DNA from: an uncultured bacterium
GTDB lineage: Bacteria; Sysuimicrobiota; Sysuimicrobiia; Sysuimicrobiales; Sysuimicrobiaceae
NCBI GenBank assembly: GCA_964437095.1
Contig: CAYTFH010000001.1
Span: 119,072-183,071, forward strand
Direction of reading: 5' to 3'
Length of the DNA: 64,000 bases
This document shows, in pieces, positions 1,347 to 18,515 of this stretch. A model generated the notes under the pieces. It was not told the DNA's origin and ran no database searches. It was given only the letters and a program-made list of their open reading frames with translations. Within the stretch, counting starts at the first letter, position 1. The number at the start of each line of letters is the position of its first letter. The position numbers and the translations under genes are program-made.

Positions 1347-2417
1347 TCAGCCTCCCCTCCACGTGGGCGGGGCGCTCACGGGCGCGGGGCAGTTCACCAC
1401 GAACAGCTCGCCCTTGGTGTCCGGCGTCCCCGGCCACCGCTTGAGCCGCCCCGCCTGCTCCTCCGCCACGATCTCCCGCTCGCTGCGCAGGACCCGGGGC
1501 CGGGCGCCGGCCTCCCACGTGAAGGTGTAGTGGTCCCAGAAGGGGCTCCAGATGGCGTCGCCGGGGTTGGAGTCGAACACGGACGGCTGGAAGCCCATGG
1601 GCCCCGGCCCCTTGATCCCGTTCCCGAACACCAGGATCTTCGCGGTCGCCCCTGCCTTGGTCAGGGCCGCCGTCTTGGGTGAGGCCGCGACCTTCATCAT
1701 GGGCGCCATGGGGGCCGCGGAGGTGTCCGTGACGATGTACCAGTGGTTGGGGAAGCACTGGTGCAGTTTGAACGTCACCTCGCGGCGGTCCACCTTGGGG
1801 TCCTCCAACAGCTGTCCGTCCCCCAGGTACTCGGTGCGCCGCCGGTCCACGGCCAACTGCCCGTCCGGCCACCGCACCATGGGGTAGTTCACCACCACCG
1901 GCGTGGACTCCACCTCCACCTGGCCCGCGCTCTGCGCGTCCCGTACCTGCTCCGCGGACCGGAGCAGCCGCGGGGAGGTCTTCCAGGTCACCCAGTGGAC
2001 CCGGTACGCGGGCGTGAAGTCGTCCCGCCCCGGGACGGTGCTGACCACCGGCAGCTGGCCCGGAGCGCCGCCTCGGAACAGATAGTAGTCCACGGTGGCG
2101 TCCTGGCGCACCGCCAAGGCCAGCTTCGGCACGAACACCAGCCCGCGCGCCTGGGCGAAGGCTTGGTCCGAGGCGTCGGTGCGGATGTGGTAGGCGAGCT
2201 TCCCGTCGAAGAAGACCGGGTGCAGGCGGAACGTCACGAAGCCGAACAGCCCCCTCCACCCCTGGGGCCGGGTGGAGAACCGCAACACGTCGCCCACGTT
2301 CTTGCGGGCTGCGGGTGCACCCCACGCCGCACCCCCTGGGAACCGGCCGCCCACGAGCGCAGCCCCGGCCAGGGCGGACCACCGCAGGAACTCCCGGCGG
2401 GTCATCCCGTACTCCAT
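1347..2417 (-). CDS. Tat-signal (twin-arginine) secreted hypothetical protein; alternative upstream in-frame GTG start at 2639
   Basis: MEYGMTRREFLRWSALAGAALVGG is a classic RR leader, preceded by a strong SD (GGGAGGAGGGGAG). The ORF continues in frame upstream to a second SD+GTG at 2639 (see finding). C-terminal domain not recognised. Confidence 0.5.
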   Translation of the reverse strand: MEYGMTRREFLRWSALAGAALVGGRFPGGAAWGAPAARKNVGDVLRFSTRPQGWRGLFGFVTFRLHPVFFDGKLAYHIRTDASDQAFAQARGLVFVPKLALAVRQDATVDYYLFRGGAPGQLPVVSTVPGRDDFTPAYRVHWVTWKTSPRLLRSAEQVRDAQSAGQVEVESTPVVVNYPMVRWPDGQLAVDRRRTEYLGDGQLLEDPKVDRREVTFKLHQCFPNHWYIVTDTSAAPMAPMMKVAASPKTAALTKAGATAKILVFGNGIKGPGPMGFQPSVFDSNPGDAIWSPFWDHYTFTWEAGARPRVLRSEREIVAEEQAGRLKRWPGTPDTKGELFVVNCPAPVSAPPTWRGG

Positions 2418-2792
2418 GGCTCCCCTCCTCCCTTCGCGCACTCGCCCGCGGTCACGCACCTTCGGTCGGTCCGCTCCGGCGTGCGCCTGCCGGTGCTCCT
2501 CGAGCCCTCGTGCGGTGAAAAACTGCACGCCGCAGCAGGACCCCACGGGTTCCCGCACGGCTCCGTGGGCTTCCACGTCGTGCCGGATCAGCTCCTCTTC
2601 GCTGGCGAACTCCCTGCCGCAGCACTGCCACTTGGCCACGTTCTCCCCTCCTTTCGGTCCACGGCTGCGCCACCCGCGTGTCGGGACGGAAGACCGCCCA
2701 CCAGGAGCCCCCAACACCACCACGGACAGCCAGAGAACCCGCATCCCCTCCTCCACCTTGCCCCGTCTCCCGCCACCGGTCCGTGAGGGACC

Positions 2793-3224
2793 TCACACAC
2801 CGGCCACCCACCCGTAGACCCAGGCCACCACCAACCCGTACACCGCGTGTCCCAGCACGATCCCCATGGCGGGGGCGGGGCCGGTGGGGAGTTCAGGGCG
2901 TCGCGGGTGCATGGCCCGCATGGCGGGCATGACGGCCGCCGCCAGGATCCCGTGCACCACGCCGAAGACCAAGCCCCAGCCCGGAGAGACCGTGCCGACG
3001 CCAGAGCGCCACAGCAACCCGTACACCGCCGTGAACACCACCCCCATCCCGAAGTGCAGCACCCCGCCCAGGGTCCTGGCCGCGGCGCCCTCGGGGACGA
3101 ACATGGTCCCCAGCGTCCCGAGCATGTCCATCCGCGGCATCCCCATGCTCGGTCCGAGGGCCATGAGGAGCGTCATGACCCCGGTCCCCACCAACCCGGC
3201 ACCCACCACCCCGCTCCAGGACAT
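2793..3224 (-). CDS. hypothetical integral membrane protein
   Basis: Strong SD (GGAGGTCGGGG) + ATG at 3224; about four predicted TM helices rich in G/A/V/L. Confidence 0.45.
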   Translation of the reverse strand: MSWSGVVGAGLVGTGVMTLLMALGPSMGMPRMDMLGTLGTMFVPEGAAARTLGGVLHFGMGVVFTAVYGLLWRSGVGTVSPGWGLVFGVVHGILAAAVMPAMRAMHPRRPELPTGPAPAMGIVLGHAVYGLVVAWVYGWVAGV

Positions 3225-3348
3225 CCCCGACCTCCGCGTACGTTGTCCAGGCCCCATGCTCGCCGCCCCGCTGTCCCGCGTCTGTAAGGTCCCTCACCGA
3301 AAGTCCCGGCGGCCCCCTCTAACCTCGGAGAGGAGGAGGTGATACGGG

Positions 3349-4249: not shown

Positions 4250-5095
4250 TCACCACAGGGCTTCCACCGGGCCCCGCTCCGGGTCTCCGAGCCGGGGGTT
4301 GGCGCGGACCCACTGCTCCGCACAGCCCGCGCCGCAGAACAGGTTGTTCACCCCGCAGCCTCCGCCCCGCACGTGCCACACGCCGGTCGGTTCGGCGCCC
4401 ACCAGCCTCCCGTCCGTCACGATCAGGCGGATCCGCCGCATGCACTGGGCACAGGCGTCGTACAGGTGGACGGTTCCCCGGTCGTAGGTCCGCCGGAAGA
4501 GGTCTTCGGGCCGCAGGCTCGCCAGGAACGCGAGCATCTTCGGGGTCATGCCGGGCGCGTCCGGGGCACCGCGCGAAGGCCTCTGGAGGCGCCTGGCCCG
4601 GTAGGTGGGGCTTGTGAGCAGCGCGAAGTCGTGGAAGCAGTTCATGTTGAACCGCTCCTTTCCGGCTACCACCTCGTGGAAGTAGAACCCTACGCCCTCC
4701 AGGAACCGCGGCGCTTCCGGGCTTAGGTGCACGTGGCTCCTGTCCCGCTCCAGGAACCCGATCCAGATCAGGGCGTCGAGGGCGGCCCGGATCCCCGCTT
4801 CCGGGAGCAAGAGGGTCTCCGAGACCCCACGGGCGAGGCGATCCTCCTCCGCCGAGCCCTGCAGGGTTCGGAGCACCCCGCGGGCCACGAGGCGCTCGTC
4901 GTTGGTGAGGAAGTAGGCCGAGGGGTGCCACCGCAGGAGGTCCGCCAGGCGAGGGTCTTCCAGGATCGCCCGGGCGATCCGGCGACGGTCGGCGTCCCGG
5001 AACGGGAGCCCCGCACGGTCCATCGCCTGCTCGAGGTTCGTGCACCGGAAGGGCTCCTGCCAGTCCGCCTCCAGGATCCGCAGCACCGCCTCCAT
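4250..5095 (-). CDS. hypothetical protein; possibly organomercurial-lyase (MerB)-like plus a C-terminal Cys cluster
   Basis: NCFHD (Cys-x2-Asp) and DACAQC about 61 aa later mirror the MerB Cys96/Asp99/Cys159 spacing. C-terminal CGVNNLFCGAGC. Weak homology, start uncertain (ATG 5095 or GTG 5122). Confidence 0.35.
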   Translation of the reverse strand: MEAVLRILEADWQEPFRCTNLEQAMDRAGLPFRDADRRRIARAILEDPRLADLLRWHPSAYFLTNDERLVARGVLRTLQGSAEEDRLARGVSETLLLPEAGIRAALDALIWIGFLERDRSHVHLSPEAPRFLEGVGFYFHEVVAGKERFNMNCFHDFALLTSPTYRARRLQRPSRGAPDAPGMTPKMLAFLASLRPEDLFRRTYDRGTVHLYDACAQCMRRIRLIVTDGRLVGAEPTGVWHVRGGGCGVNNLFCGAGCAEQWVRANPRLGDPERGPVEALW

Positions 5096-5106
5096 ACCCA
5101 CGCCCC

Positions 5107-5295
5107 TTAGCAGAAGGGACACCCGCCCCGGCGGGCTACGGCGGTTCCTTCCTCGGTGCCCGCCTCGGGGACATCCGCTTCAGGGGTCGCAGGCTCGCTC
5201 GACCCCGCCCGGGCGGCGAGGAGGAGGGCCAGGAGCTTCCCCCCGCAGCACAGCGCGATCACCCCCACGATCCCCAAACTGGTAAGCCAGTCCAT
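5107..5295 (-). CDS. small membrane protein with vicinal Cys pair in its TM helix and C-terminal CPFC (MerT/MerF-like?)
   Basis: Strong SD GGAGGTGAGAACG + ATG. MDWLTSLGIVGVIALCCGGKLLALLL...GGCPFC. Confidence 0.4.
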   Translation of the reverse strand: MDWLTSLGIVGVIALCCGGKLLALLLAARAGSSEPATPEADVPEAGTEEGTAVARRGGCPFC

Positions 5296-5309: not shown

Positions 5310-6410
<1,101 letters not shown>

Positions 6411-6466
6411 TTATGCGGGGGTTCCGGTGCCCGGTTGGACGGTGTATCCTCGAGGAGGGGTAAGTC

Positions 6467-7043
6467 ATGGAGTCTGGCACCGGGCCGCCTGCACCGGAAG
6501 GGTCCCGCCACACCCGAGAGTTCCTCCAGCGGATGATCGAAGAGCACAGCGCGGCCCTGTACCGGGCAGCCGACCACATGACCGGTCGGGCCGACGACGC
6601 CGAGGACCTCGTCCAGAAGACGTTCATCCGGGCCTGGCGCTTCCTCCACAGCTTCGATCCAGCCGGCAACGCCCGCCGTTGGCTCTTGAGGATCCTGCTG
6701 AACCTGTACGTCGACTCCCTGCGTCGCGGGAAGCGCCGGCCCGAGAGCCTCGACCTATCGGAGGGAAATCCGTAGATGACCTGTACCTTTACCGTCATAT
6801 CGTGAGCTCCCAGGACCTGGAGACCTCCGGCGATCCCGCTGTGGTGTTCTTCGACCGTCTGGTGGGCGATGAGATCCAGGCCGCCCTGCGCGGATTGCCC
6901 ACAGACTACCGGAAGGTGCTCCTCCTCTTTGCGAGGGGTTTTCCTACCACGAGATCGCCGAGATCCTGAACCTCCCCATCGGGACGGTGATAAGCCGCTC
7001 CCATCGGACCAGGACCCTCCTGCAGAAGAGCCTGTGGGAGTAC
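6467..7043 (+). CDS. ECF (sigma-70 family) sigma factor interrupted by two -1 frameshifts (near 6770 and 6940)
   Basis: Region 2 (DLVQKTFIRAWRF) in frame A; region 3/4.1 (LPTDYRKVLLLFA) in frame B; region 4.2 (EGFSYHEIAEILNLPIGTV) in frame C. Both shifts fall at short homopolymers. Good SD GGAGGAGGGG + ATG. Confidence 0.55.
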
Positions 7044-7088
7044 TGCGTCCGCACCGGCCGCTGCCGACCCCAGCCCACGCCTGCCGTC

Positions 7089-7307
7089 GTGCCCGCCCCG
7101 TGTGCGGAGGCGTGCCGACACCTGTACGGCTACCTGGACCCAGCCAGCCTCACCGCGGTCGAGCAACACCTCGCCGTGTGCCGCCGGTGCTGCGACCGGC
7201 TGGAGTTCTACCGGCGTCTGGAAGCCACCATCCGTGAAACCCTCCAGCGCACCCGCCTCCCCCGTTCCCTGCGGTCCCGCCTGAACCGCCTGGCCCAGCT
7301 CCTCTGA
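7089..7307 (+). CDS. anti-sigma factor, ZAS zinc-finger (HxxxCxxC) domain; reads in frame with sigma region 4.2
   Basis: CAEACRHLYGYLDPASLTAVEQHLAVCRRCCDRLEF is the zf-HC2 anti-sigma signature. No stop separates it from the sigma frame-C segment; GTG 7089 is a possible independent start. Confidence 0.45.
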   Translation: MPAPCAEACRHLYGYLDPASLTAVEQHLAVCRRCCDRLEFYRRLEATIRETLQRTRLPRSLRSRLNRLAQLL

Positions 7308-7421
7308 GGGGACGACCCTTGCCCCCCGGGAGTCGCGGAGTAGTTAACATACGGTTTTCCGTAATTTGACCTTGGAAACGGGTGCAGCCGGGGGTCCCGG
7401 GCGCCGGGCCGGGGGTGGACC

Positions 7422-8438
7422 GTGGAGTGGATCTGGTGGGCTGTCCTGCTCGTCCTCGCGAACCTCCCCATCGCCACGCTCCTCCTGGACCGCATCTTCG
7501 GCGTTCCTGCACCCCAGCTCATCCGGTTCGGCTGGCTGCCCGGCGCGTTCGTACTGGCTGGGGTTTTGGCTTGGTCCGCCGCCACACGTCAGCCGGTTCT
7601 CGACCTCGTGGTGTGGGGCGCGGTGGGCGGGTTCGTCGCCACGGTGGCTTTGGACGTCGTCCGGTTCACGGGGCTCCATGTCTTCCGCGCGTTTCCCGTG
7701 GACATGCCTCAGGTCTTCGGCGTGCTCGCCCTCGGTCTGGGTCCGCACCTGCAAAAGAACGTGATCGCCATGGTGCGCCACCTCGCCGGCCAGGACCCTG
7801 AAGCACAGCAGGAGCTCCTGGCAGAGCGCCTGGTGGGCCTTGGGCGGCTCCCTGAGCCCGTGCGGGTGGCCGTCATCCGTGCCATGCGCAAGGGCCTCGC
7901 ATCTTTCCCTGAACCCCAGCGCCACGAGCTCATGGCCACCCAGATGTCCCTCCTCACAACGCTCCCGTCGGAGGCCCGCCAGACGGTGATGCGGGTCATG
8001 GACCTGGCCATGGCCGACCGCGCCCAACCCGTGTACCAGCAGCCCCGCGGCATGCCCAAGGTCCCCATGTACACCGCGAGGGAGCTGCTGGCGGAGGCCC
8101 TGCCCCAGACTCTCGCCGAAGCGGGCGTCCCTCGCGCCGCCGTCCTGTTGGCGGGGTACGGCTGGCACCTCCTGAACGGCTTGGGGTTCGGGGTGACGTA
8201 CACCCTGCTCTTCGGGCATGGGACCTGGGCGCTGGCGCTGGCCTGGGGGCTATTTATCTGGGCGGGGATGATGGTCACCATGCCCATCATGATGCCCACC
8301 ATCCGGTTCCCCATGCCGCGCTTCCTGGTGGTCCTGTTTATCGCCCACGTGGTCATGGCCGGCCCCATCGGGTACTTCGCGTTCCTCGTATCGCGGGAGG
8401 CCCACCGCGCGAGCCTGGTGGGGAGGGTGCTCCCGTGA
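7422..8438 (+). CDS. membrane protein with internal ~19-aa PExxR..M repeats (repeat-family member A)
   Basis: N- and C-terminal TM helices; central LPEPVRVAVIRAMRKGLASF / PEPQRHELMATQMSLLTTL / PSEARQTVMRVMDLAMADRA repeats. Confidence 0.55.
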   Translation: MEWIWWAVLLVLANLPIATLLLDRIFGVPAPQLIRFGWLPGAFVLAGVLAWSAATRQPVLDLVVWGAVGGFVATVALDVVRFTGLHVFRAFPVDMPQVFGVLALGLGPHLQKNVIAMVRHLAGQDPEAQQELLAERLVGLGRLPEPVRVAVIRAMRKGLASFPEPQRHELMATQMSLLTTLPSEARQTVMRVMDLAMADRAQPVYQQPRGMPKVPMYTARELLAEALPQTLAEAGVPRAAVLLAGYGWHLLNGLGFGVTYTLLFGHGTWALALAWGLFIWAGMMVTMPIMMPTIRFPMPRFLVVLFIAHVVMAGPIGYFAFLVSREAHRASLVGRVLP

Positions 8439-8559
8439 AGCTCCTGCCCGGTCGGGGAGGCTCGTGCGCACGCGGGGCACAAGCCAAGCCGCCCCTGACG
8501 GCTTTGCCTCCCCGGCCGGCGCGTCTCGTGGAACGGGCCTGCGCTCGGAGGTGAGAACC

Positions 8560-9970
8560 ATGGCAACTGACCACGTTGTGCCAACGACCCGCGTGGGTCG
8601 GCCCCCGATCCTCCCGCCGGGTTTGTCGATCCTCGTGGGGTTCGCGGACGAGCTCCTGCTCGTGCTCGTGGCGTTGTGGCTGGCGCTCCTCGGCGCTTGG
8701 CTGGGGGCGGTCGTGAGTGGGGGTGGCGGTGGCCATCTGGGCCACGGTGACCACCATCATGCTCTGGCCGGTCGGCCGGCGGCTGGGTCGTCCTTACGTT
8801 TCGTACCGTACCGCCCTGTTCATCCTCGGGGTGCTCAGCATGGCCTACACCCCTGCCATCGGCTTCATCCTCCAGTCGGGTCTTCCGTACACCCCGAAGC
8901 TCATCCTGTGGCTGTTGCTCCCCCTGGACCTCACGGTGTTCGCCATCCTGCCGAGCCTGCGGGCGGCCATGGGCCGCCCCATCCGCATGTTCTTCCGGCC
9001 CGATCTCCTCTTCGGTGACGGCCGGGTCCTGTGCTGCGGGACCGTGGCGCTCCTGTTCGGGATCCGGTACCTCATCGGGCCGCACCCGCCCGAGGGTGTT
9101 CCCGTGGCCCCGCCCCGGTGGAACTGGTGGGGGATCGCCTTCGCCATGGCCTTCGGCTTCATCCCCCTGATCCCCCTCCGGGGGATGACCAAGCTCCTCA
9201 TGCGCACGGCGCGGCTCATCCGCGATGAGGGGTACGGCTGGTGGGGCGTCATCCTGAAGGAGACGTTCCTGGTGGTCACCATCCTGGGGATCGCCCTGGG
9301 GTTCCACCACGCGTTCAAGGGGTGGGTACCCTTCGATGCGCGGTTCTGGGAGGAAGCCCGCAAGGCCATCGAGCACCGCGGGGTGTGGCGGGGTCTCCTC
9401 CTCATGGCCTTCGGGTACGTCTGGCTCGTCTTCGTCCGGGGCGGCTACAAGATGCGCATCGGCGAGCCGTTCCTCCGCGAGACCGTCCTCCAGACGTGGA
9501 TCAAAGAACTGCTGTACGTGCCCGGCGTGGTCGCCCTCGTGCCCGGCGTGATGTTCCTCGTGGAGGAGCACTTCGGGCAGCTGAACCGTGGCGCCATGCT
9601 GGCGGTGGGTATCCCCTTCTTCCTGTGGGGTCTTGTCTGCGTCACCGCCTTCCGGGTCCTAGCCCAGGTCAACCAGCGCCGGGCCCTTGTCCAGCAGATG
9701 GCGGCGGTGGTCCTGCCGGCCCACAGCCCCGAGGTTCGGCGCAAGGTGCTCCGGAAGGTAATGGACGCCCTCGCCGGGATGCCCGGAGATCAGCGGCTGT
9801 TCTACATGCACGCCATGCAGGAGGCCATCGCCCAGTCGCCGGAGGAGGTGCGGGAGGTCATGACCGACGACCGGCTCGCGGTGCTCGCGGAGCTGCCGCC
9901 GGAGAAGCGGCAGGTGATCCTCGCGTCCATGGACCGGATCCTTCTGGATCCGGCTCCCTCGGGAGCTTGA
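8560..9970 (+). CDS. polytopic membrane protein with C-terminal ~19-aa repeats (repeat-family member B); apparent frameshift at the GGGGG run near 8717
   Basis: SD GGAGGTGA + ATG at 8560 gives a TM helix in frame 1. GC3 coding signal switches to frame 2 at about 8717. C-terminal repeats SPEVRRKVLRKVMDALAGM / PGDQRLFYMHAMQEAIAQS / PEEVREVMTDDRLAVLAEL / PPEKRQVILASMDRILLD. Confidence 0.5.
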
Positions 9971-9990
9971 TCACAAAAGAGGTGATCCAC

Positions 9991-10498
9991 ATGAAGGGAT
10001 GGGCATGGGTGAACGTAGTTCTGGGTGCGTGGCTCGTGGTGGCTCCCTGGATCCTCGGGTACGGGCGGGGGGGAGCCGTGGCCAACGACGTGGTCCTCGG
10101 CGTCGCGGTGGGTGTTGCGGCCATTGGCCGCGGCACTCGCCCGCATGCCGGACGCCCAGCGCAAGGTGATGATGGGCGAGCGGCTCCGGATGTTCGCCCG
10201 GATGCCGGAGGCGGAGCGCAAGCGGGCCATGGCCGCCATGATGGAGGGGGTCGCCGCTCTCCCGGACGACGACAGGAAGAAGCTCTTTCAGACCCGCTTC
10301 GAGGTCCTGGCGGAGCTCAGCGACTCGGAGCGCAAGAGCCTCATGAGCACCCACATGGCCATCGTGATGGAAAAAGGGATGGACATGATCCAGACGGAGA
10401 TGCGACTTACGGAGGCCGTTCTCCCTCAGCTGGCCCCGCCGGTCCGCCAGATGGTGCAGACGATGATGGAGAGCATGAGAACGGGCGGGATGCACTGA
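9991..10498 (+). CDS. SPW-repeat-like two-TM anchor fused (via apparent frameshift near 10125) to a Met-rich four-repeat domain (repeat-family member C)
   Basis: SD GAGGTGA + ATG. WVNVVLGAWLVVAPWILGY matches the SPW-repeat type. Downstream frame B encodes MPDAQRKVMMGERLRMFAR / MPEAERKRAMAAMMEGVAAL / PDDDRKKLFQTRFEVLAEL / SDSERKSLMSTHMAIVMEKGM ...MVQTMMESMRTGGMH, about 16% Met. Confidence 0.45.
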
Positions 10499-10541
10499 GC
10501 GCAGCCGGCGGGCGGGTCCCTGGCCGACGCTCCGAGGGGAA

Positions 10542-10952
10542 TCAGGAGCGGCGGCCGGCGCGCCGCCTGCCCTGCCGGGCGCCGCGGGCGCGCACCCTGC
10601 GGTCGATGATGGTGCAGCTGCGGATGCGGTCCGTGTGGTCCCGGAGCATGTCCGCGGCCATCTCCAGGATCCGGCGGACCCGCGGGTCGGTGACCCGGTA
10701 GTACACCCGCCGGCCCTCCCGACGGGCGGTGACGTACCCGCACCACCGTAGGCAGGCGAGGTGGCTCGACACGCGCCCCTGAGGGGAACCGGTGAGGGCC
10801 ACCAGCTCGCTCACGTTCTTCTCCTCGTCCAGCACCGCCTGCAGGATCCGCAGGCGCGTGGGATCCCCCAGCGCCCGGAAGAACTTGGCCATGAGGACCT
10901 CGTCCGACAGGTTCGGCAGCACGAAGGGCGGCGTCATCAGCTCGGCGCGCAT
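10542..10952 (-). CDS. ArsR/SmtB-family metalloregulator
   Basis: HTH KFFRALGDPTRLRILQAVL...VSELVALTGSPQGRVSSHLACLRWCGYV; SD GGAGGTG + ATG. Confidence 0.75.
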   Translation of the reverse strand: MRAELMTPPFVLPNLSDEVLMAKFFRALGDPTRLRILQAVLDEEKNVSELVALTGSPQGRVSSHLACLRWCGYVTARREGRRVYYRVTDPRVRRILEMAADMLRDHTDRIRSCTIIDRRVRARGARQGRRRAGRRS

Positions 10953-10970
10953 TCCTCACACCTCCAGGGT

Positions 10971-10984
10971 CGCACACGTGTTCA
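10971..10984 (-). promoter_or_regulatory. imperfect palindrome TGAACACGTGTGCG upstream of arsR (candidate operator)
   Basis: ACACGTGT core palindrome about 20 nt upstream of the arsR SD. Confidence 0.25.
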
Positions 10985-11031
10985 AGGATACGTGAGCATC
11001 TGGCGGCCCGCAAGCCCGCAGCGGCCGGGCT

Positions 11032-12762
11032 TCATCCGCCCTCCCGGGCGAGCCGGACCAAGCCGGCGGCCAGGCCGTCCAGCAAGGCCTCCCACGACGC
11101 CCGCGGCACCTCGTCCCACCCGGGGAGCTCACACCAGGCCCGCTCGCGGGACGGCTCCTTAGGCCTGCCCACCAGCACCGTGCGGTGCGCGGGGTGCTGG
11201 AAGCCTTCCACCACCACCACGTCCGGTGCGGCTACGCCGTCCGGCCGGCACAGGGCCACCGCCTCCTGCAACGTCAGCGGGTGGTCGGGGAAGGCCCGTA
11301 CCGCCGCCTCCGCGTCACCGGCCAGGACCACGGCGGCAGCACCCGCCCGAGCCGCCCGCTCGCTGTCGCTGCCCTCGCGGTCCAGCTGGAACCCGTGGGG
11401 GGCGTGCTTCACTACCCCCACCTTCAGGCCCAGATCCCTCAGCCTGCGCACCAGTCCCTCCACCACCGCGGTCTTGCCCGCCCCCGACTCTCCCACCACG
11501 CCCACCACCAGGGGTGCCGGACAGGCGTCCGGGATCTCCAGAGCGTCGCCGGTCTCTGGGTGGTCCAGCAGCAGCGCGGGGACCCCGGAACCGGCCCGCA
11601 GGTACGGCGTTTTCGACTTCAGCAACAGCAGGGCCTGCGCCCGCGCCAGGCTTTCCAGCACGGGGCCCGACAACGGCTGTACCGCCATCCGGGAGCCCGC
11701 GGGGGCCAACGCGGCCCACACGGCCCGCATGCGGTCCGTGGCCGGCAACTCCCCTTGCAGGGGAACGACCACCAGGGGCCGCACCACGTGCCGCCGCCCG
11801 CCCAAGCGCAGCAGCAGCGGCCGCACCAACAGGTGATAGGCCGCAAGACACGCGGCGGGGCTGCCGGACAGCGCCACCGCCCACCGCCTGCCTACCACAC
11901 CGGCGAAGAAGGGGCCGCCGGGCTTGAGGTCCACGCGCCCGGCCACCTTCTCCGCCCCCAGGTCCAGCCACACCCTGGGAACCCGGTCGTAACGTCCCAC
12001 GGAAACCGCCCCGGTGGTCAGCACCACGTCGTAAGGACCGGCCAGAGCCCTGTGAAAGGCGGCCCGCAAGGCCTCGGGACGGTCCGGCAGGGTGCCCCCG
12101 TAGTCCACCTCGCAGCCGGCCCGGGAAAGCTCCGCGGCCAACGCGAACGCGTTGGTGTTGAACACGCGGCCCGGCGCCGGCGGTCCAGGGGGCTCGGTGA
12201 GCTCGTCCCCCGTGCAGAACAGCACCATCCGCGGCCTGCGGTACACCCGGAACTCGGACACACCCCCTGCGATCAGGGCCGCCACCGCTCCGGGGCTGAC
12301 GGCCTCACCCTCGCGCACGATGATGGCGCCCTCGGGTAGCTCCTCGTCCGGGCGTACCACGTGCCGCTTTCGAGGCGGTGCCTCCGCCAGCACCACCGCC
12401 GCGCCCTCCCGCCGCACCAGCTCCAGCGGCAGGACGCGGTCTCCCCGGAGGGGCATGGCGGCACCCGTGCTGATGACCCACGCTTCGCCGCGGCCGGGCC
12501 CCGCAGCAGGCGGCTTGCCGGGCCGGCACTCCCCGGTGACCACCAGGCGCACCGGGTTTTCCGAGGACGCCTGCCGCACGTCCTCGTGGTGGCACACGTA
12601 GCCGTCCATGGCGGCCCGCGGGAACCCCGGGGCGTTGCGGGTACTACGCACTTCCTCCGCGCTCACCCGGCCGGCCGCCTGCGCGGAGGGGACCCACTCC
12701 ACACCCACCGGCCGCGCGCGCTCCAGCAGGCTCCTGAGGACCTGTTCCACCGGCTCCGCCAT
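11032..12762 (-). CDS. moeA: molybdopterin molybdotransferase MoeA fused to MobB
   Basis: MoeA N-terminal and central domains. C-terminus has the P-loop GVVGESGAGKT and VVKH of MobB. SD AAGGAGGG + ATG. Confidence 0.8.
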   Translation of the reverse strand: MAEPVEQVLRSLLERARPVGVEWVPSAQAAGRVSAEEVRSTRNAPGFPRAAMDGYVCHHEDVRQASSENPVRLVVTGECRPGKPPAAGPGRGEAWVISTGAAMPLRGDRVLPLELVRREGAAVVLAEAPPRKRHVVRPDEELPEGAIIVREGEAVSPGAVAALIAGGVSEFRVYRRPRMVLFCTGDELTEPPGPPAPGRVFNTNAFALAAELSRAGCEVDYGGTLPDRPEALRAAFHRALAGPYDVVLTTGAVSVGRYDRVPRVWLDLGAEKVAGRVDLKPGGPFFAGVVGRRWAVALSGSPAACLAAYHLLVRPLLLRLGGRRHVVRPLVVVPLQGELPATDRMRAVWAALAPAGSRMAVQPLSGPVLESLARAQALLLLKSKTPYLRAGSGVPALLLDHPETGDALEIPDACPAPLVVGVVGESGAGKTAVVEGLVRRLRDLGLKVGVVKHAPHGFQLDREGSDSERAARAGAAAVVLAGDAEAAVRAFPDHPLTLQEAVALCRPDGVAAPDVVVVEGFQHPAHRTVLVGRPKEPSRERAWCELPGWDEVPRASWEALLDGLAAGLVRLAREGG

Positions 12763-12842
12763 CCCTCCTTAGCATGGCGCAACCCGGCCCCGGTTGTCCC
12801 GGGTTGCTGCAGCGCCGAAGTCCAGCGCACCATGGGGGCAGG

Positions 12843-13451
12843 TTGCGGCTGGCTGGGGTGGTCCTGGCAGGGGGCAAGAGCCGGCGCATGGGCACGGACA
12901 AGGCGGCCCTGCGCCTCGGTAACGTTAGCCTGCTGGAATGGGTGGTGGAGCGGGTCCAGGCCTGCTGCGACCCGGTGTTCGTGGTCGCCTCCCGGCCCGA
13001 CGCTTATCCAGATCTAAGGGTCCCGGTGTTGGTGGACCGGTGGCCGGGGCTGGGGCCTCTGGCGGGCCTAGATGCAGGCCTGCGCGCGTGCCCCGGGGAG
13101 TACGCGGTGGTGGTGGCCTGCGACCTGCCGTTCGTCAGGCCGGAGCTATTGTGCGGGCTCGCACAGGAGGCGCAGGGCATCGACGCCGCGGTCCCCGTCA
13201 CCGACCGGCCCCACCCGCTGTGCGCGGTGTACCACCGCCGGGCGGCGGACGCGGCGGAGTTGCTCCTCCGCGCGGGCGGAGGGTCCTTGCGCGACCTGCT
13301 GGACCGTCTGCAGGTGCGCTACGTTCCGGAGGCCGTGCTCCGCCGGTGGGATCCCCACCTGGACAGCCTGGTGAACGTGAACACCCCGCAGGACTACGCC
13401 CGGGCCCTGGCCCGGCTTCGGGCCGCGGGCGAACACCGCCGTTCTCCGTAA
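12843..13451 (+). CDS. mobA: molybdenum cofactor guanylyltransferase MobA (start uncertain: ATG 12774, TTG 12843 or GTG 12858)
   Basis: GVVLAGGKSRRMGTDKAAL...VVACDLPFV motifs. Confidence 0.65.
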   Translation: MRLAGVVLAGGKSRRMGTDKAALRLGNVSLLEWVVERVQACCDPVFVVASRPDAYPDLRVPVLVDRWPGLGPLAGLDAGLRACPGEYAVVVACDLPFVRPELLCGLAQEAQGIDAAVPVTDRPHPLCAVYHRRAADAAELLLRAGGGSLRDLLDRLQVRYVPEAVLRRWDPHLDSLVNVNTPQDYARALARLRAAGEHRRSP

Positions 13452-13482
13452 CCGCACGCTCACCGCATGCCACGGTGGGTGT

Positions 13483-14187
13483 TCACCGGCCCGCCGCTGC
13501 TGCGTCCACCCACCACACCAGCACGCCGTCCCGCGGGCGGATCGCGCTGGCGGGACAGCTCAGGGCATCCACCGGCCCTTCCAGGGCCCGCCGCTTCTCC
13601 TCCCCAGCCACCAACACGTCTACCCGGCGCGCCCGGTTGAGCACGGGCAGGGTCAGGGTGAGGCGCACCGTGGGCGGGGTCCCGCCCCACACCGCCACCA
13701 CCCACCGCTCGGTCTCGAGGACCGCCGGCGAGCCGGGAAAGAGGGAGGCCACGTGCCCGTCCGCTCCCATCCCCAACAGGACCAGGTCGAAGGCGGGGTC
13801 GTCCGGCCCCAGCTCCGCCCGCAGGCGGTCTGCGTACGCGGCCGCCGCCTCATGGGGATCTGCCAGGTGAGTGGGCATGGGGTGGACGTTGTCCTGGGGG
13901 ATGGCGACCCGATCCAGGAGCGCGGTCCGCACCATGCGGTAGTTGCTGGCCGGGTGGTCCCGGTCCACGTACCGCTCGTCCCCCCACCACAGGCGGACCG
14001 CCCTCCACGGCACGTCCCGGTCTTGCGCCAGCAGTTCGTACATCCGCCTCGGCCTGCGGCCTCCGGCCAGGGCCACCACGCACCGGCCGGACCGCGCCAC
14101 GGCCTCCCGGATGCAGGCGGCGACGCTAGCCGCGGCGGCGGCGCTGAGGGTTTCCAGGTCCGGGTGGACCCGGACTTCCCCGGTCAC
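13483..14187 (-). CDS. pgl: 6-phosphogluconolactonase
   Basis: VALAGGRRP...WGDERYV...SNYRMVRTALLDRVAIP motifs; GTG overlaps the zwf stop (GTGA). Confidence 0.75.
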   Translation of the reverse strand: MTGEVRVHPDLETLSAAAAASVAACIREAVARSGRCVVALAGGRRPRRMYELLAQDRDVPWRAVRLWWGDERYVDRDHPASNYRMVRTALLDRVAIPQDNVHPMPTHLADPHEAAAAYADRLRAELGPDDPAFDLVLLGMGADGHVASLFPGSPAVLETERWVVAVWGGTPPTVRLTLTLPVLNRARRVDVLVAGEEKRRALEGPVDALSCPASAIRPRDGVLVWWVDAAAAGR

Positions 14188-15625
14188 GTGGTGAACCAGC
14201 TCCGGTGGTCGCGCCGCAGGAGCTCCCAGGCTTCTCCGGGACCCCAACTGCCCGCGGGGTACGGGTGGACCGGTGGTGGGTCCTCGAGCAGCCCAGCGTA
14301 CACGCGCCACGCCTCCTCCACCTCGTCCGCCCGCACGAACAAGGACGGGTCCCCCCACAGGACGTCCGGCAGAAGGGTGTCGTACGCGTCCGGGAGCACC
14401 CCGAAGGCCTGCCCATACCCGAAGTGCAGCCGCTCCGTGGTGAACCGAATCGGCTGACCGGGGTGCTTCACGGAGAAGTACAGGTCGAACCCCTCGTCCG
14501 GCTGGAGGGTTATGACCAGGGCGTTGGGGTCCAGAGAACAGCCGGGGCCGAAGAGGGCCACGGGCGCCGGCCGGAACACCACCACCACCTGGCTTCGCTG
14601 CTGCCCCATGCGCTTGCCCGTGCGCAGGTAGAAGGGCACCCCTTGCCACCTCCAGTTGGACACCTGCACCCGCAGGGCGACGAAGGTCTCGGTCTGGGAG
14701 CGGGCGCCGAGCTCCTCCGGGTACCCGGGGACGTCCCGCCCCTGGACCCGGCCGCGGCGGTACTGGCCGAACACCGCGTCCTCCCGCCGCACCGGGGCCA
14801 CGGACCGCAGCACCTTCACCTTCTCGTTCCGGATGGACTCGGCTTCGAAGCTCGCGGGCGGTTCCATGGCCACCAGGGTCAACAGCTGCGTCAGGTGGTT
14901 CTGCACCATGTCCCGGAGGGCGCCCACCTGGTCGTAGTACTCCAGCCGCCCTTCCACCCCGATGGTCTCCGCCACGGTGATCTGCACGTGGTCCACCCGG
15001 TCCCGGTTCCACAGGGACTCGAAGATGGGGTTGGCGAACCGGAAGGTGAGCAGGTTCTGCACCGTTTCCTTCCCGAGGTAGTGGTCGATGCGGTACACGT
15101 GTCCTTCGTCAAAGGAAGAGTGGACCAGGGCGTTCAGGTGGCGGGCGGAGGCGAGGTCCAGCCCGAAGGGCTTCTCCACCACGAGGCGGGTCCAGCCGGA
15201 ACTCCGGTTCAGGTCGCTGCGCCCCAACCCTTCCACTGCAGGGGCGACCGCGCGCGGGGGGGCGGCCAGGTAGAACACGCGGTGGGGCGGCAGGCCGAAC
15301 TGTTGCTCAGGCCTTCCACCCGGGCCCTCAGGGACTCGTAGTCCGCGGGGGTTCCTGGGCCGAGGGGGTGGAAGAACAGGCAGGCCTCACACCACGCCCG
15401 GAGCGCTTCGCAGGGGAGTCCAGCCTCCGCTAGGGCATCCCGCGCCCACGCCCGGAACCGTTCGTCGTCCCAGGGCGAGCGGGCGACCCCCACGACCACC
15501 TGGCGCCGCAGCGTCCCCTTGGCGCCCAGCCGCGCCAGAGCGGGGAGAAGCTTGCGGCGCATGAGGTCCCCGGTGGCCCCGAACACCACGAAGACGTGCG
15601 GCGGGATCTCAGCGCGCGTCGCCAC
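14184..15625 (-). CDS. zwf: glucose-6-phosphate 1-dehydrogenase, apparent frameshift near 15300-15340
   Basis: N-terminus VFVVFGATGDLMRRKLLPAL (15209-15625 frame). Remainder (FYLAAPP...RIDHYLGKE...) lies in the 14184-15278 frame. Confidence 0.7.
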
Positions 15626-16523
15626 GGCGCTTGAGGGGGTGCCCGCCGAACTGCGCCCGCATCACGGCCAGCAGCCGGTCCGCGTAGGACTCCAGGTCCC
15701 GGGAGCGGAGCCGCTGCAGCAGCGACAGGGTGATCACGGGCGCGGGCACGTCCAGATCCACGGCCTCCGCCACCGTCCACCGCCCCTCTCCGGAGTCCTC
15801 CACGTAGGGCGCCACGTCCGTCAAGTCCGGGTCCTGCTCCAACGCACGCGCGGTGAGGTCCAACAGCCAGGACCGGATGACGCTGCCGTGCCGCCACAGC
15901 TCTGCCACCTGGCGCAGGTCCAGACCGAACTCCCGCTTCCGCCGCAGGATGGCGAACCCCTCCGCGTACGCCTGCATGAGGCCGTACTCGACGCCGTTGT
16001 GCACCATCTTCACGAAGTGACCCGCGCCCACGGGCCCCACCCTCGCCCAGCCGCGGTCGGGCGCGGGGGCCAGGGCCTCCAACAGCGGCCTCAGGCGCTC
16101 CACCGCCGCGGGCGCACCCCCCACCATGAGGCAGTACCCGTTCTCCTCACCCCAGACCCCGCCGCTGGTGCCCACGTCCACCAGGTGGATGCCCTTCTCC
16201 CGCAGGGACTCGGCCCTGCGTAGTGTGTCCCGGTAGAAGGAGTTGCCGCCGTCCACCACCACGTCGCCCGGCGACAGGTGTGGCGCAAGCTCGTGGATGA
16301 CGCTGTCCACCGCTCCCGCGGGCACCATCAGCCACACCACCCGGGGGGCCGCCACACTCTTCGCCAGCTCTTCCAGAGAGGAGACCGCGCGCACCCCCGC
16401 CTGCTCCGCCCGACTCCGGGTCTCCTCCTGACGCGCGTACCCCAGCGCGCGGTGGCCGGCGCGCACCCAGCGCCGCGCCATCCCCCCTCCCATGCGGCCC
16501 AGTCCCACCAGCCCGACGTCCAC
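15609..16523 (-). CDS. gnd: 6-phosphogluconate dehydrogenase (short NAD-binding GndA/YqeC type)
   Basis: MDVGLVGLGRMGGGMARR Rossmann N-terminus; central ...MVHNGVEYGLMQAYAEGF... Confidence 0.75.
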   Translation of the reverse strand: MDVGLVGLGRMGGGMARRWVRAGHRALGYARQEETRSRAEQAGVRAVSSLEELAKSVAAPRVVWLMVPAGAVDSVIHELAPHLSPGDVVVDGGNSFYRDTLRRAESLREKGIHLVDVGTSGGVWGEENGYCLMVGGAPAAVERLRPLLEALAPAPDRGWARVGPVGAGHFVKMVHNGVEYGLMQAYAEGFAILRRKREFGLDLRQVAELWRHGSVIRSWLLDLTARALEQDPDLTDVAPYVEDSGEGRWTVAEAVDLDVPAPVITLSLLQRLRSRDLESYADRLLAVMRAQFGGHPLKRRGDAR

Positions 16524-18110: not shown

Positions 18111-18515
18111 ATGGTCGGCTACTTGTACCACCCGCCCGTCACGGACTTCCCCATCGCCCTGTGGGTCACCGCCCTACTGTTCGACCTGCTGTACTGGCGC
18201 CGGCCCTCGGAGCTGTACCGGTCCATGGGGACGTGGCTGGTGGCCCTGGGGCTGGTGGCCGCGCCGGTGGCGGTGGCCACGGCCTTCTACGACTTCGTTC
18301 GGCTGCAGCGGGAGGGTGTGGGTGCCGCGTTCGTCGCGCGCCACACCGCCCACAGCCTCCTCGCGTACGCCGCCACAGGCACCTACGCGGCCAACCTACT
18401 CGTCCGCCTGAAAGCGCCCCGGGCCTGGGGCTGGGTTTTGGCCACGTCCGTGCTGGGAGCTGCCCTGGTGGCGGCGGTGGGCTACCTCGGAAACCAGGTC
18501 CGGCAGGTGATGTGA
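18111..18515 (+). CDS. DUF2231-like membrane protein
   Basis: SD GGAGGTGG + ATG; HPPVTDFPIALWVTALLFDLLY. Confidence 0.5.
   Translation: MVGYLYHPPVTDFPIALWVTALLFDLLYWRRPSELYRSMGTWLVALGLVAAPVAVATAFYDFVRLQREGVGAAFVARHTAHSLLAYAATGTYAANLLVRLKAPRAWGWVLATSVLGAALVAAVGYLGNQVRQVM

Follow-up and report, generated by a model that had tools for sequence, protein, structure and literature searches.

The window, that is the whole stretch of DNA analysed here, comprises 64,000 nucleotides from an uncultured bacterium of the Sysuimicrobiaceae (contig CAYTFH010000001.1, positions 119,072 to 183,071), with a G+C content of about 70%. Our subject is a row of three genes on its plus strand, named A, B and C, for which an earlier note, made from the letters alone, had proposed a common tandem repeat, membership in an envelope module and control by a sigma/anti-sigma pair encoded upstream. 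As a basis for checking the gene models, we used the three-frame translation of positions 6400-10720 together with the list of open reading frames (ORFs). Gene A (7422..8438) is a single ORF with the limits given in that note and encodes an intact protein of 338 residues, in which a repeat domain is inserted into a six-helix membrane core. B and C, in contrast, are frame-broken here. Gene B (8557..9970) encodes about ten transmembrane helices followed by a C-terminal repeat domain and has lost single nucleotides at 8703 and 8718, and gene C falls into a 5′ part with the first SPW repeat, which stops at a deletion junction (9991..10124; Pfam SPW, 1.8e-9), and a 3′ part that carries a Met-rich repeat domain in a frame other than that of SPW (10125..10498; Pfam DUF3106, 5.6e-7).

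A, B and C each carry one homologous alpha-helical domain of about 80 residues, built of four 19-residue P-[DE]-x-x-R units, which lie at 7794..8021 in A (residues 125-200), at 9728..9952 in B, where there is also a weak Pfam MgtE_N match (E 0.0042), and at 10148..10375 in C, which has a degenerate fifth unit at 10433..10489. For a profile comparison with hhalign, we excised the repeat regions from alignments of the three families, comprising 55 sequences for A, 115 for B and 18 for C. The results show that all three pairs align in register across 78-80 columns, with a probability of 99.3% and an E-value of 2.2e-20 for A-B, 99.1% and 1.4e-18 for A-C, and 98.2% and 3.6e-14 for B-C, while controls with reversed or column-shuffled partners gave E-values of at least 0.066. 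At the level of the single unit, 62 of 78 pairs of 19-residue profiles matched at E ≤ 1e-3, compared with none of 156 column-shuffled controls (minimum E 0.0033), and the best matches joined equivalent units (A2-B2-C2, A4-B4, A1-C1 and A3-C3/C4). Odd and even units form two classes, so that the domain is a duplicated two-helix super-unit of 38 residues. AlphaFold2 models the repeat region as four consecutive helices, both in A and in P0058, a homologue of B. The tandem repeat of about 19 residues that had been described in all three proteins is thus borne out beyond chance, with four units of the proposed pattern in each, by profile-profile comparison as well as by self-comparison of the units.

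The same repeat had been taken for an undescribed domain, which no longer holds. The C reading frame 10025-10498 scores 30.4 bits against Pfam DUF3106 (PF11304), above the gathering cut-off of 24.3 bits, and this cut-off is also passed by the domain carriers P0190, P0194, P0265, P0278 and P0295. Within the A family, 21 of 53 members match DUF3106 at E ≤ 0.1 (best 6e-6); a Pfam scan of the window copies of A and B gave no DUF3106 match at that threshold. Judged by these profile matches, the shared domain is a distant DUF3106 and so not wholly undescribed. No function is described for DUF3106 in the literature that we searched, so that membership says nothing on mechanism. The domain is also rare: a profile built from the three window copies retrieved only 217 cluster representatives among 1.84 billion proteins, which comprise soluble C-like proteins of 100-170 residues, SPW fusions, A-like and B-like proteins, and a handful of carriers built otherwise, one of them a fusion to a PP2C phosphatase.

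Membrane cores and the side of the membrane

Outside the shared domain, the three proteins differ. In A, six long hydrophobic helices surround the inserted repeat domain (AlphaFold2 model with a predicted local distance difference test score, pLDDT, of 91.3 and a predicted TM-score, pTM, of 0.86). Its family, for which we found 57 homologues, is without Cys in 49 of 53 aligned members and shows the invariant residues D78, M95, H249, M283, M284, M287, M290, M291 and H309, which include the motif MMxxMPxMM. Three of the 53 members match the DUF6789 model (best E 1.1e-4) and two match DUF1440. The window encodes a further protein of this kind, a 166-residue DUF6789/DUF1440-like membrane protein at 2793-3293 on the minus strand, which has the pattern GMPxxxM...G..H...G..F...Y.LL.G in common with the C-terminal core of A; the hhalign match between the two is weak (E 0.002, probability 13%).

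B has about ten helices and an invariant FRPD..FGDGR.L motif, and its close homologue P0058 (96% identical) was modeled with a pLDDT of 93.2 and a pTM of 0.91. A vicinal Cys-Cys pair is present in 47 of 76 members (62%), the window copy included, and members have both Cys or neither. For C, a strong Shine-Dalgarno sequence precedes the start codon, and the N-terminal region 9991-10140 matches SPW (PF03779), a two-helix membrane hairpin, with 38.4 bits at a cut-off of 31.5. C proteins are anchored by one such hairpin, by two, or by none: a form of 253 residues consists of two SPW repeats, a linker and the repeat domain, and one of 199 residues has a single SPW repeat before the domain. C-like proteins contain a median of 11% Met and 0% Cys and end in Met/His-rich tails; high Met is confined to C, A having 6.5% and B 4.7%. 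The soluble C-like proteins P0196, P0201, P0217 and P0244 end in WWKFW, WWRFWG or WWEFWK after the Met-rich tail, and such ends might dip into the membrane.

Comparison with known families was largely negative. Searches with PDB sequence profiles and further structure comparisons gave no solved structural relative of A or B, the best profile matches not being meaningful (designed armadillo proteins, E 0.09; AurF, E 0.003, over a stretch of transmembrane segment plus helix). NCBIfam holds no model for A, B or C, none of the three matches a known Mer transporter family in Pfam or NCBIfam, and tblastn of A and B against the PLSDB plasmids returned no match.

The repeat domain of all three proteins is most likely cytoplasmic, as judged from sequence features, which speaks against the envelope module that had been envisaged. 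Among the small C-like proteins (100-170 residues), 59 of 63 are without any hydrophobic stretch and should therefore be cytoplasmic; moreover, the domain typically starts within the first ten or so residues of these soluble forms, leaving no space for a signal peptide. In B, Lys/Arg-rich loops occur in regular alternation, which puts the C-terminal domain on the Lys/Arg-rich side, that is, with “inside” parity. The topology parity of A is ambiguous from sequence alone.

Genomic company across 27 loci

We collected 27 distinct loci with an A homologue, many of them on short contigs, from Chloroflexota/Anaerolineae, an assembly of Thermoflexus hugenholtzii, Armatimonadota (including a metagenome-assembled genome, MAG), Actinomycetota/Acidimicrobiia, Acidobacteria, Thaumarchaeota and a Methanobacteriota MAG. 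On the same stretch as A, B was found in 16 loci, a separate C-like gene in 18, MerA in 13, an ArsR-family regulator in 11, an ECF (extracytoplasmic function) sigma factor in 11, CcdA in nine, MerE in five, and an HMA ATPase (L002, L012, L020 and L030) as well as a redoxin in four each. The MerA proteins of these loci have the N-terminal (NmerA) motif GMTCxxC and the C-terminal LSCCAG; merA directly follows A in L014 and is directly adjacent to it in L021 as well, and the T. hugenholtzii assembly shows an intact set in the order merA-merB-...-MerE-...-redoxin-...-B-x-A-C. Query sequences of MerT, MerC and MerF gave matches in only one of the 27 loci. Our search of the literature on mer neighbourhoods and on SPW repeats, including a 2021 paper on mer diversity, found no description of the A, B and C genes. 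The trio thus travels together, beside merA, ArsR-family regulators and Cys-bearing ECF sigmas, in several bacterial and archaeal phyla with many heat-loving members, and both the domain homology and this synteny uphold the proposal of a paralogous, co-located set. The tie to a sigma factor stands in part: it is seen in 11 loci but absent from most, and merA (13 of 27) and ArsR (11 of 27) are at least as frequent, so that the module is better assigned to mercury-resistance islands than to the regulon of one sigma factor.

The sigma gene of the window (6467..7307, +) had been read as a sigma/anti-sigma pair; relatives have a single fused gene. In L008, L006 and L002 a continuous ORF encodes sigma and the anti-sigma domain ZAS as one polypeptide (in L002, 288 residues with r2, r4_2 and zf-HC2). 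The window copy is frame-broken, and its three frame pieces match Sigma70_r2 (1.9e-17), Sigma70_r4_2 (E 0.0033 and 1e-5) and, weakly, zf-HC2 (E 0.016); its ZAS motif is CAEAC...EQHLAVCRRCC, that is H-x3-C-x2-C with upstream Cys, and no stop separates region 4 from ZAS in frame 0. The sigma part is sigmaH/R-like, with SigM, SigH and SigE as the nearest NCBIfam models. Such fusions adjoin A in the window clade and in L002. A different ECF sigma, in which a CPxC tail at the C-terminus is conserved along with other Cys residues, lies near A or merA in six Actinomycetota/Acidimicrobiia MAG loci, on the minus strand in each (L011 8875-9555, L013 8826-9485, L014 6254-6706, L021 13350-13979, L024 6388-6981 and L025 11446-12045). 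In all, about ten of the sigmas in the 11 loci bear Cys motifs. The CPxC-tailed proteins are possible metal- or thiol-sensing sigmas in the style of CorE. Cys-based sensing of thiol-reactive stress or of metals is an established mode for SigR-RsrA and SigH-RshA as well as for Cys-rich ECF groups (PMC7826278).

A candidate control region upstream of A (7337..7366, +) contains GGAGT-N18-CGTAA, which resembles an ECF promoter, and is kept in L006 and L008. The expected promoter is found there only with a reservation, since its putative −10 element overlaps a perfect palindrome, TACGG-TTTT-CCGTA (7350-7363), that also occurs upstream of A in the sigma-less locus L030. L030 has TACGG-N4-CCGTA at 7846 and at 18289; upstream of A it stands directly behind TTGACA-N17-TAATAT, and the second copy is intergenic, between redox genes. 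Given its presence in a locus without a sigma gene, a repressor operator is at least as likely as an ECF promoter, and we regard TACGG-N4-CCGTA as a candidate operator, probably for ArsR. The window contains one perfect copy; with one mismatch allowed the palindrome is not enriched there (three found, a number reached by 6 of 100 shuffles). A scan of 6200-11100 for sigma-70 promoters gave none, and an Rfam scan of the whole window gave no match. An ECF-type promoter considered upstream of A in Actinomycetota loci (GAAC...CGTC) was dropped because it overlaps the ribosome-binding site and start codon. The spacer between A and B contains a conserved hairpin (8449..8518, +) with a 13-bp stem; RNAalifold on three sequences (window, L008 and L006) keeps 13 outer pairs, one of them supported by a compensatory change.

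Several neighbors in the window recall mercury or metal resistance. Convergent with C lies a gene for a CmtR-like metalloregulator of the ArsR/SmtB family (10542..10952, −; Pfam HTH_5, 4e-14; NCBIfam HTH_metalloreg, 1e-25), and divergent to the trio lies a merA remnant (5313..6410, −). Just downstream of the latter, a gene at 5110..5295 (−) encodes a membrane protein of 62 residues whose helix contains a vicinal CC and whose C-terminus bears CPFC; it matches no Pfam or NCBIfam family and has a homologue just downstream of MerA in L030 (14392-14577; 44% identity, weak, E 0.002). By its motifs and position, it may be a small Hg(II) carrier in the style of MerE or MerF. A gene at 4250-5122 (−) encodes a 290-residue protein with a Cys-rich C-terminus and a weak MerB match only (E 0.021); it may be an organomercurial lyase of divergent sequence or a protein of another kind. 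DUF7482 proteins recur as well (window 1347-2792, −, with a weak match to a twin-arginine translocation signal; L002 5895-6431; L030 15942-17012), and DsrE and OsmC are encoded in the window. The genes for 6PGL, G6PD and 6PGD adjoin the trio both in the window (13483-16523, −), where G6PD is split by a frameshift near 15290-15308, and in L030 (4703-7802); such pentose-phosphate genes may fit a supply of NADPH to MerA.

State of the copy in the window

A is the sole intact member of the trio in the window. Its close relatives in other metagenomes, L006/L007 and L008, whose A proteins are 87-94% identical, encode in a row the sigma-ZAS fusion, A (339 residues), B (469-470 residues) and C (253 residues), and comparison with them locates the lesions. 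Relative to L006 and L008, the two single-nucleotide deletions in B split off its first 49 codons, so that its longest ORF in the window is 8717-9970; C has lost 251 nucleotides at 10124/10125, a loss that covers the second SPW repeat plus linker and shifts the frame; and DNA alignment places single-nucleotide deletions at 6766 and 6932 in sigma-ZAS. The merA gene is damaged too: tblastn with the intact MerA of L030 recovers, at 82% identity, residues 188-553 only, with Pfam matches to Pyr_redox_2 and Pyr_redox_dim. The gene is 5′-truncated, its first 187 or so codons (NmerA, the FAD site and the redox Cys pair) being gone, and it has an in-frame TAG near 5529-5561, a stop of the substitution type; the C-terminal LSCCAG is still present. 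With lesions in sigma-ZAS, B, C and merA, the system in this window is probably no longer functional.

We weighed whether these lesions stem from assembly. A Logan contig (run SRR11582147) is 100% identical to window positions 6418-16267, so that the lesion features are not the product of a single assembler. The same truncated C product of 117 residues is called on four contigs, many ORFs of 500-800 codons elsewhere in the window are intact, and pairwise ratios of nonsynonymous to synonymous substitution rates (dN/dS) against L008 and L006 are 0.09-0.38, all of which points to recent decay of one island. On the other hand, all four single-nucleotide lesions are deletions, most of them in or beside G-runs, which leaves some room for assembly error. 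We consider such error less likely than a recently decayed copy, given the identical Logan contig, the C product on four contigs, the stop and truncation in merA, and the intact ORFs elsewhere. The run that yielded the Logan contig also contains a second, paralogous and intact set (L002/L003), with A (62% identical), the sigma-ZAS fusion, B, C and a separate SPW gene of 57 residues; if this set belongs to the same genome, the window copy may have decayed because it was redundant.

A possible role in mercury handling

Based on the domain homology and the genomic company, we propose that the trio is a partly decayed copy of a conserved, uncharacterized three-gene accessory module of mer islands that handles Hg(II), a reading to which we assign a probability of about one half. 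A role with Hg(II) or another soft metal is suggested by the Met/His cluster of A, the Cys pair of B, the 11% Met of C and the fact that these loci seldom encode known Mer carriers. In such a scheme, the shared domain on the cytoplasmic face would be a common docking or assembly module that joins A, B and the Met-rich C in a membrane-associated complex. This complex would take part in the handling of Hg(II), or of a different thiol-seeking metal, on the inner side of the membrane; metal that crosses by way of A and B might be passed to C and then on to MerA. As for regulation in this lineage, sigma-ZAS would be a sensor within a single polypeptide that switches the operon on when Hg(II) or thiol oxidants attack its zinc-thiolate site, and an ArsR-type repressor would probably bind TACGG-N4-CCGTA.

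Several points weigh against this proposal. For none of A, B, C and DUF3106 did we find a characterized homologue. Cys pairs are what known Hg(II) carriers rely on; A has no such pair, and 38% of B members are without the CC. The Met residues conserved in the repeats may serve helix packing only. Some loci have genes of the copper type (an HMA ATPase in 4 of 27, CsoR in L030) instead of merA, merA was not seen within the analysed stretch of 14 of the 27 loci, and several loci already encode a MerE-like or small CC protein able to carry out uptake.

A sharper version of the proposal, which we offer only tentatively, is that A-B-C would form a previously unrecognized machine that takes up Hg(II) and hands it on in deep-branching thermophiles, both bacteria and archaea, in place of MerT/MerP, with metal passing through the Met/His residues of A and the Cys-Cys of B to C, a Met-rich cytoplasmic solenoid that would feed MerA, and with the DUF3106-like domain as docking interface. 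If true, DUF3106 would thereby gain a first function, and the way in which mer systems without known transporters obtain their substrate would be explained. Many mer operons outside Proteobacteria and Firmicutes have no recognized Hg(II) transporter. The trio beside merA is a testable candidate for the membrane step that is missing there, or for a protective function of a new kind; DUF3106, a Pfam family without known role, gains a genomic context; and the sigma-ZAS fusion and the CPxC-tailed ECFs are self-contained Cys-bearing sigmas that could possibly sense mercury or thiol stress. The module itself appears to be undescribed, and T. hugenholtzii, with its intact set, may serve as a cultured organism for experiments.

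Among the alternatives, the one that survives best, unlikely as it is, would make the trio a copper or silver module, in which the Met of C and the Met/His of A would be ligands for Cu(I) or Ag(I), merA being a mere frequent neighbor in mixed metal islands. Met motifs serve as Cu(I)/Ag(I) ligands in Ctr1, CusF and SilE/PcoE, and the Met content of C, the Met/His tails and MMxxMPxMM are typical ligand sets of this kind, found in loci of which four (L002, L012, L020 and L030) encode HMA P-type ATPases and one (L030) CsoR. However, MerA is three times commoner than these ATPases (13 versus 4 of 27), A lies directly beside merA in L014 and L021, and Met-rich copper sites are typically periplasmic, whereas the shared domain appears cytoplasmic.

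About equally unlikely is the idea of a regulatory tether, according to which the domain would bind sigma-ZAS, a CPxC-tailed ECF or another regulator, and A, B and C would not handle metal but be membrane-anchored modulators, either resembling anti-sigma factors or acting as partners of a sensor. Cys-bearing ECF sigmas near A in about 10 of 27 loci, the fusion of the domain to a PP2C phosphatase, which suggests a signaling context, and weak Sigma70_r4_2-like matches in a few members are consistent with it. Yet most loci are without a sigma, an inhibitory or sensor domain is already built into these sigmas, a tether would not need three large membrane proteins of different kinds, and the Met, His and Asp conserved within A's membrane core suggest a site for a ligand or for transport.

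We consider it improbable that the trio is, as the earlier note had suggested, a general envelope-stress module formed by the regulon of the upstream ECF sigma and unrelated to metals. The position immediately downstream of the sigma-ZAS gene and the ECF-like GGAGT-N18-CGT upstream of A, conserved in L006 and L008, agree with such a regulon; against these stand the majority of loci, which have the trio without a sigma and with merA or ArsR instead, the likely cytoplasmic place of the domain, and the overlap of the putative −10 with a palindrome that a sigma-less locus has behind a sigma-70-type promoter. The least probable of the functional readings is a buffer against thiol or oxidative damage, in which Met-rich cytoplasmic domains would act as sacrificial antioxidant surfaces or as partners of CcdA and redoxin, shielding membrane proteins during metal stress: CcdA (9 of 27 loci), redoxin (4 of 27), DsrE and OsmC in the window and the high Met content fit it, but methionine sulfoxide reductase was not seen in these loci, Met is high only in C, and the conserved membrane cores are left unexplained. 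Finally, a chance or compositional likeness of amphipathic helices without common origin, conceivable for short helical units rich in Arg, Glu, Leu and Met, is ruled out by profile E-values of 2e-20 to 4e-14, in register, against controls at 0.066 or above, and by the unit-level control.

Returning to the proposed mer-island module, its parts can be set beside known systems. The shared domain has the P-E-x-x-R helical repeat character of DUF3106 (PF11304), of which the family studied here is a small one, carried on membrane anchors of the SPW, A and B types and associated with mer genes. Alpha-solenoids of the HEAT/ARM type (MIF4G and Rrp1, or the repeats of the MgtE N-domain and FliG) score low and show no sequence relationship; their units are longer, whereas the unit here is one helix of 19 residues, paired in a 38-residue super-unit. 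C begins with a bona fide SPW hairpin, and the C-terminal core of A weakly resembles DUF6789/DUF1440, all of these being families without known function.

The sigma-ZAS protein recalls SigR-RsrA and SigH-RshA in its order of Sigma2 and sigma4 followed by C...HxxxCxxC; those systems are made of two proteins, whereas sigma-ZAS is one soluble polypeptide of about 280 residues without a transmembrane segment. It can also be likened to the CorE-type ECF238, to ECF287/288 and to ECF52 with its fused zinc finger, which have Cys-rich C-terminal extensions, and the CPxC-tailed sigmas near A recall the Cys-rich groups ECF238, ECF287 and ECF288 (PMC7826278). What sets sigma-ZAS apart from known ECF/ZAS systems is that its putative targets are a mer-island module, and that the window gene is frameshifted twice.

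The membrane proteins MerT, MerC, MerF and MerE are encoded beside merA; for A, MerA lies on the same stretch in 13 of 27 loci. Where a transmembrane helix of these carriers reaches the cytoplasm, it bears a vicinal Cys pair; B has a pair in a like position in 47 of 76 members, and A is without Cys in 49 of 53. A and B show no similarity to the carriers in sequence or fold. Compared with these carriers of 80-140 residues, A (338 residues) and B (470 residues) are much larger and add a probably cytoplasmic solenoid domain.

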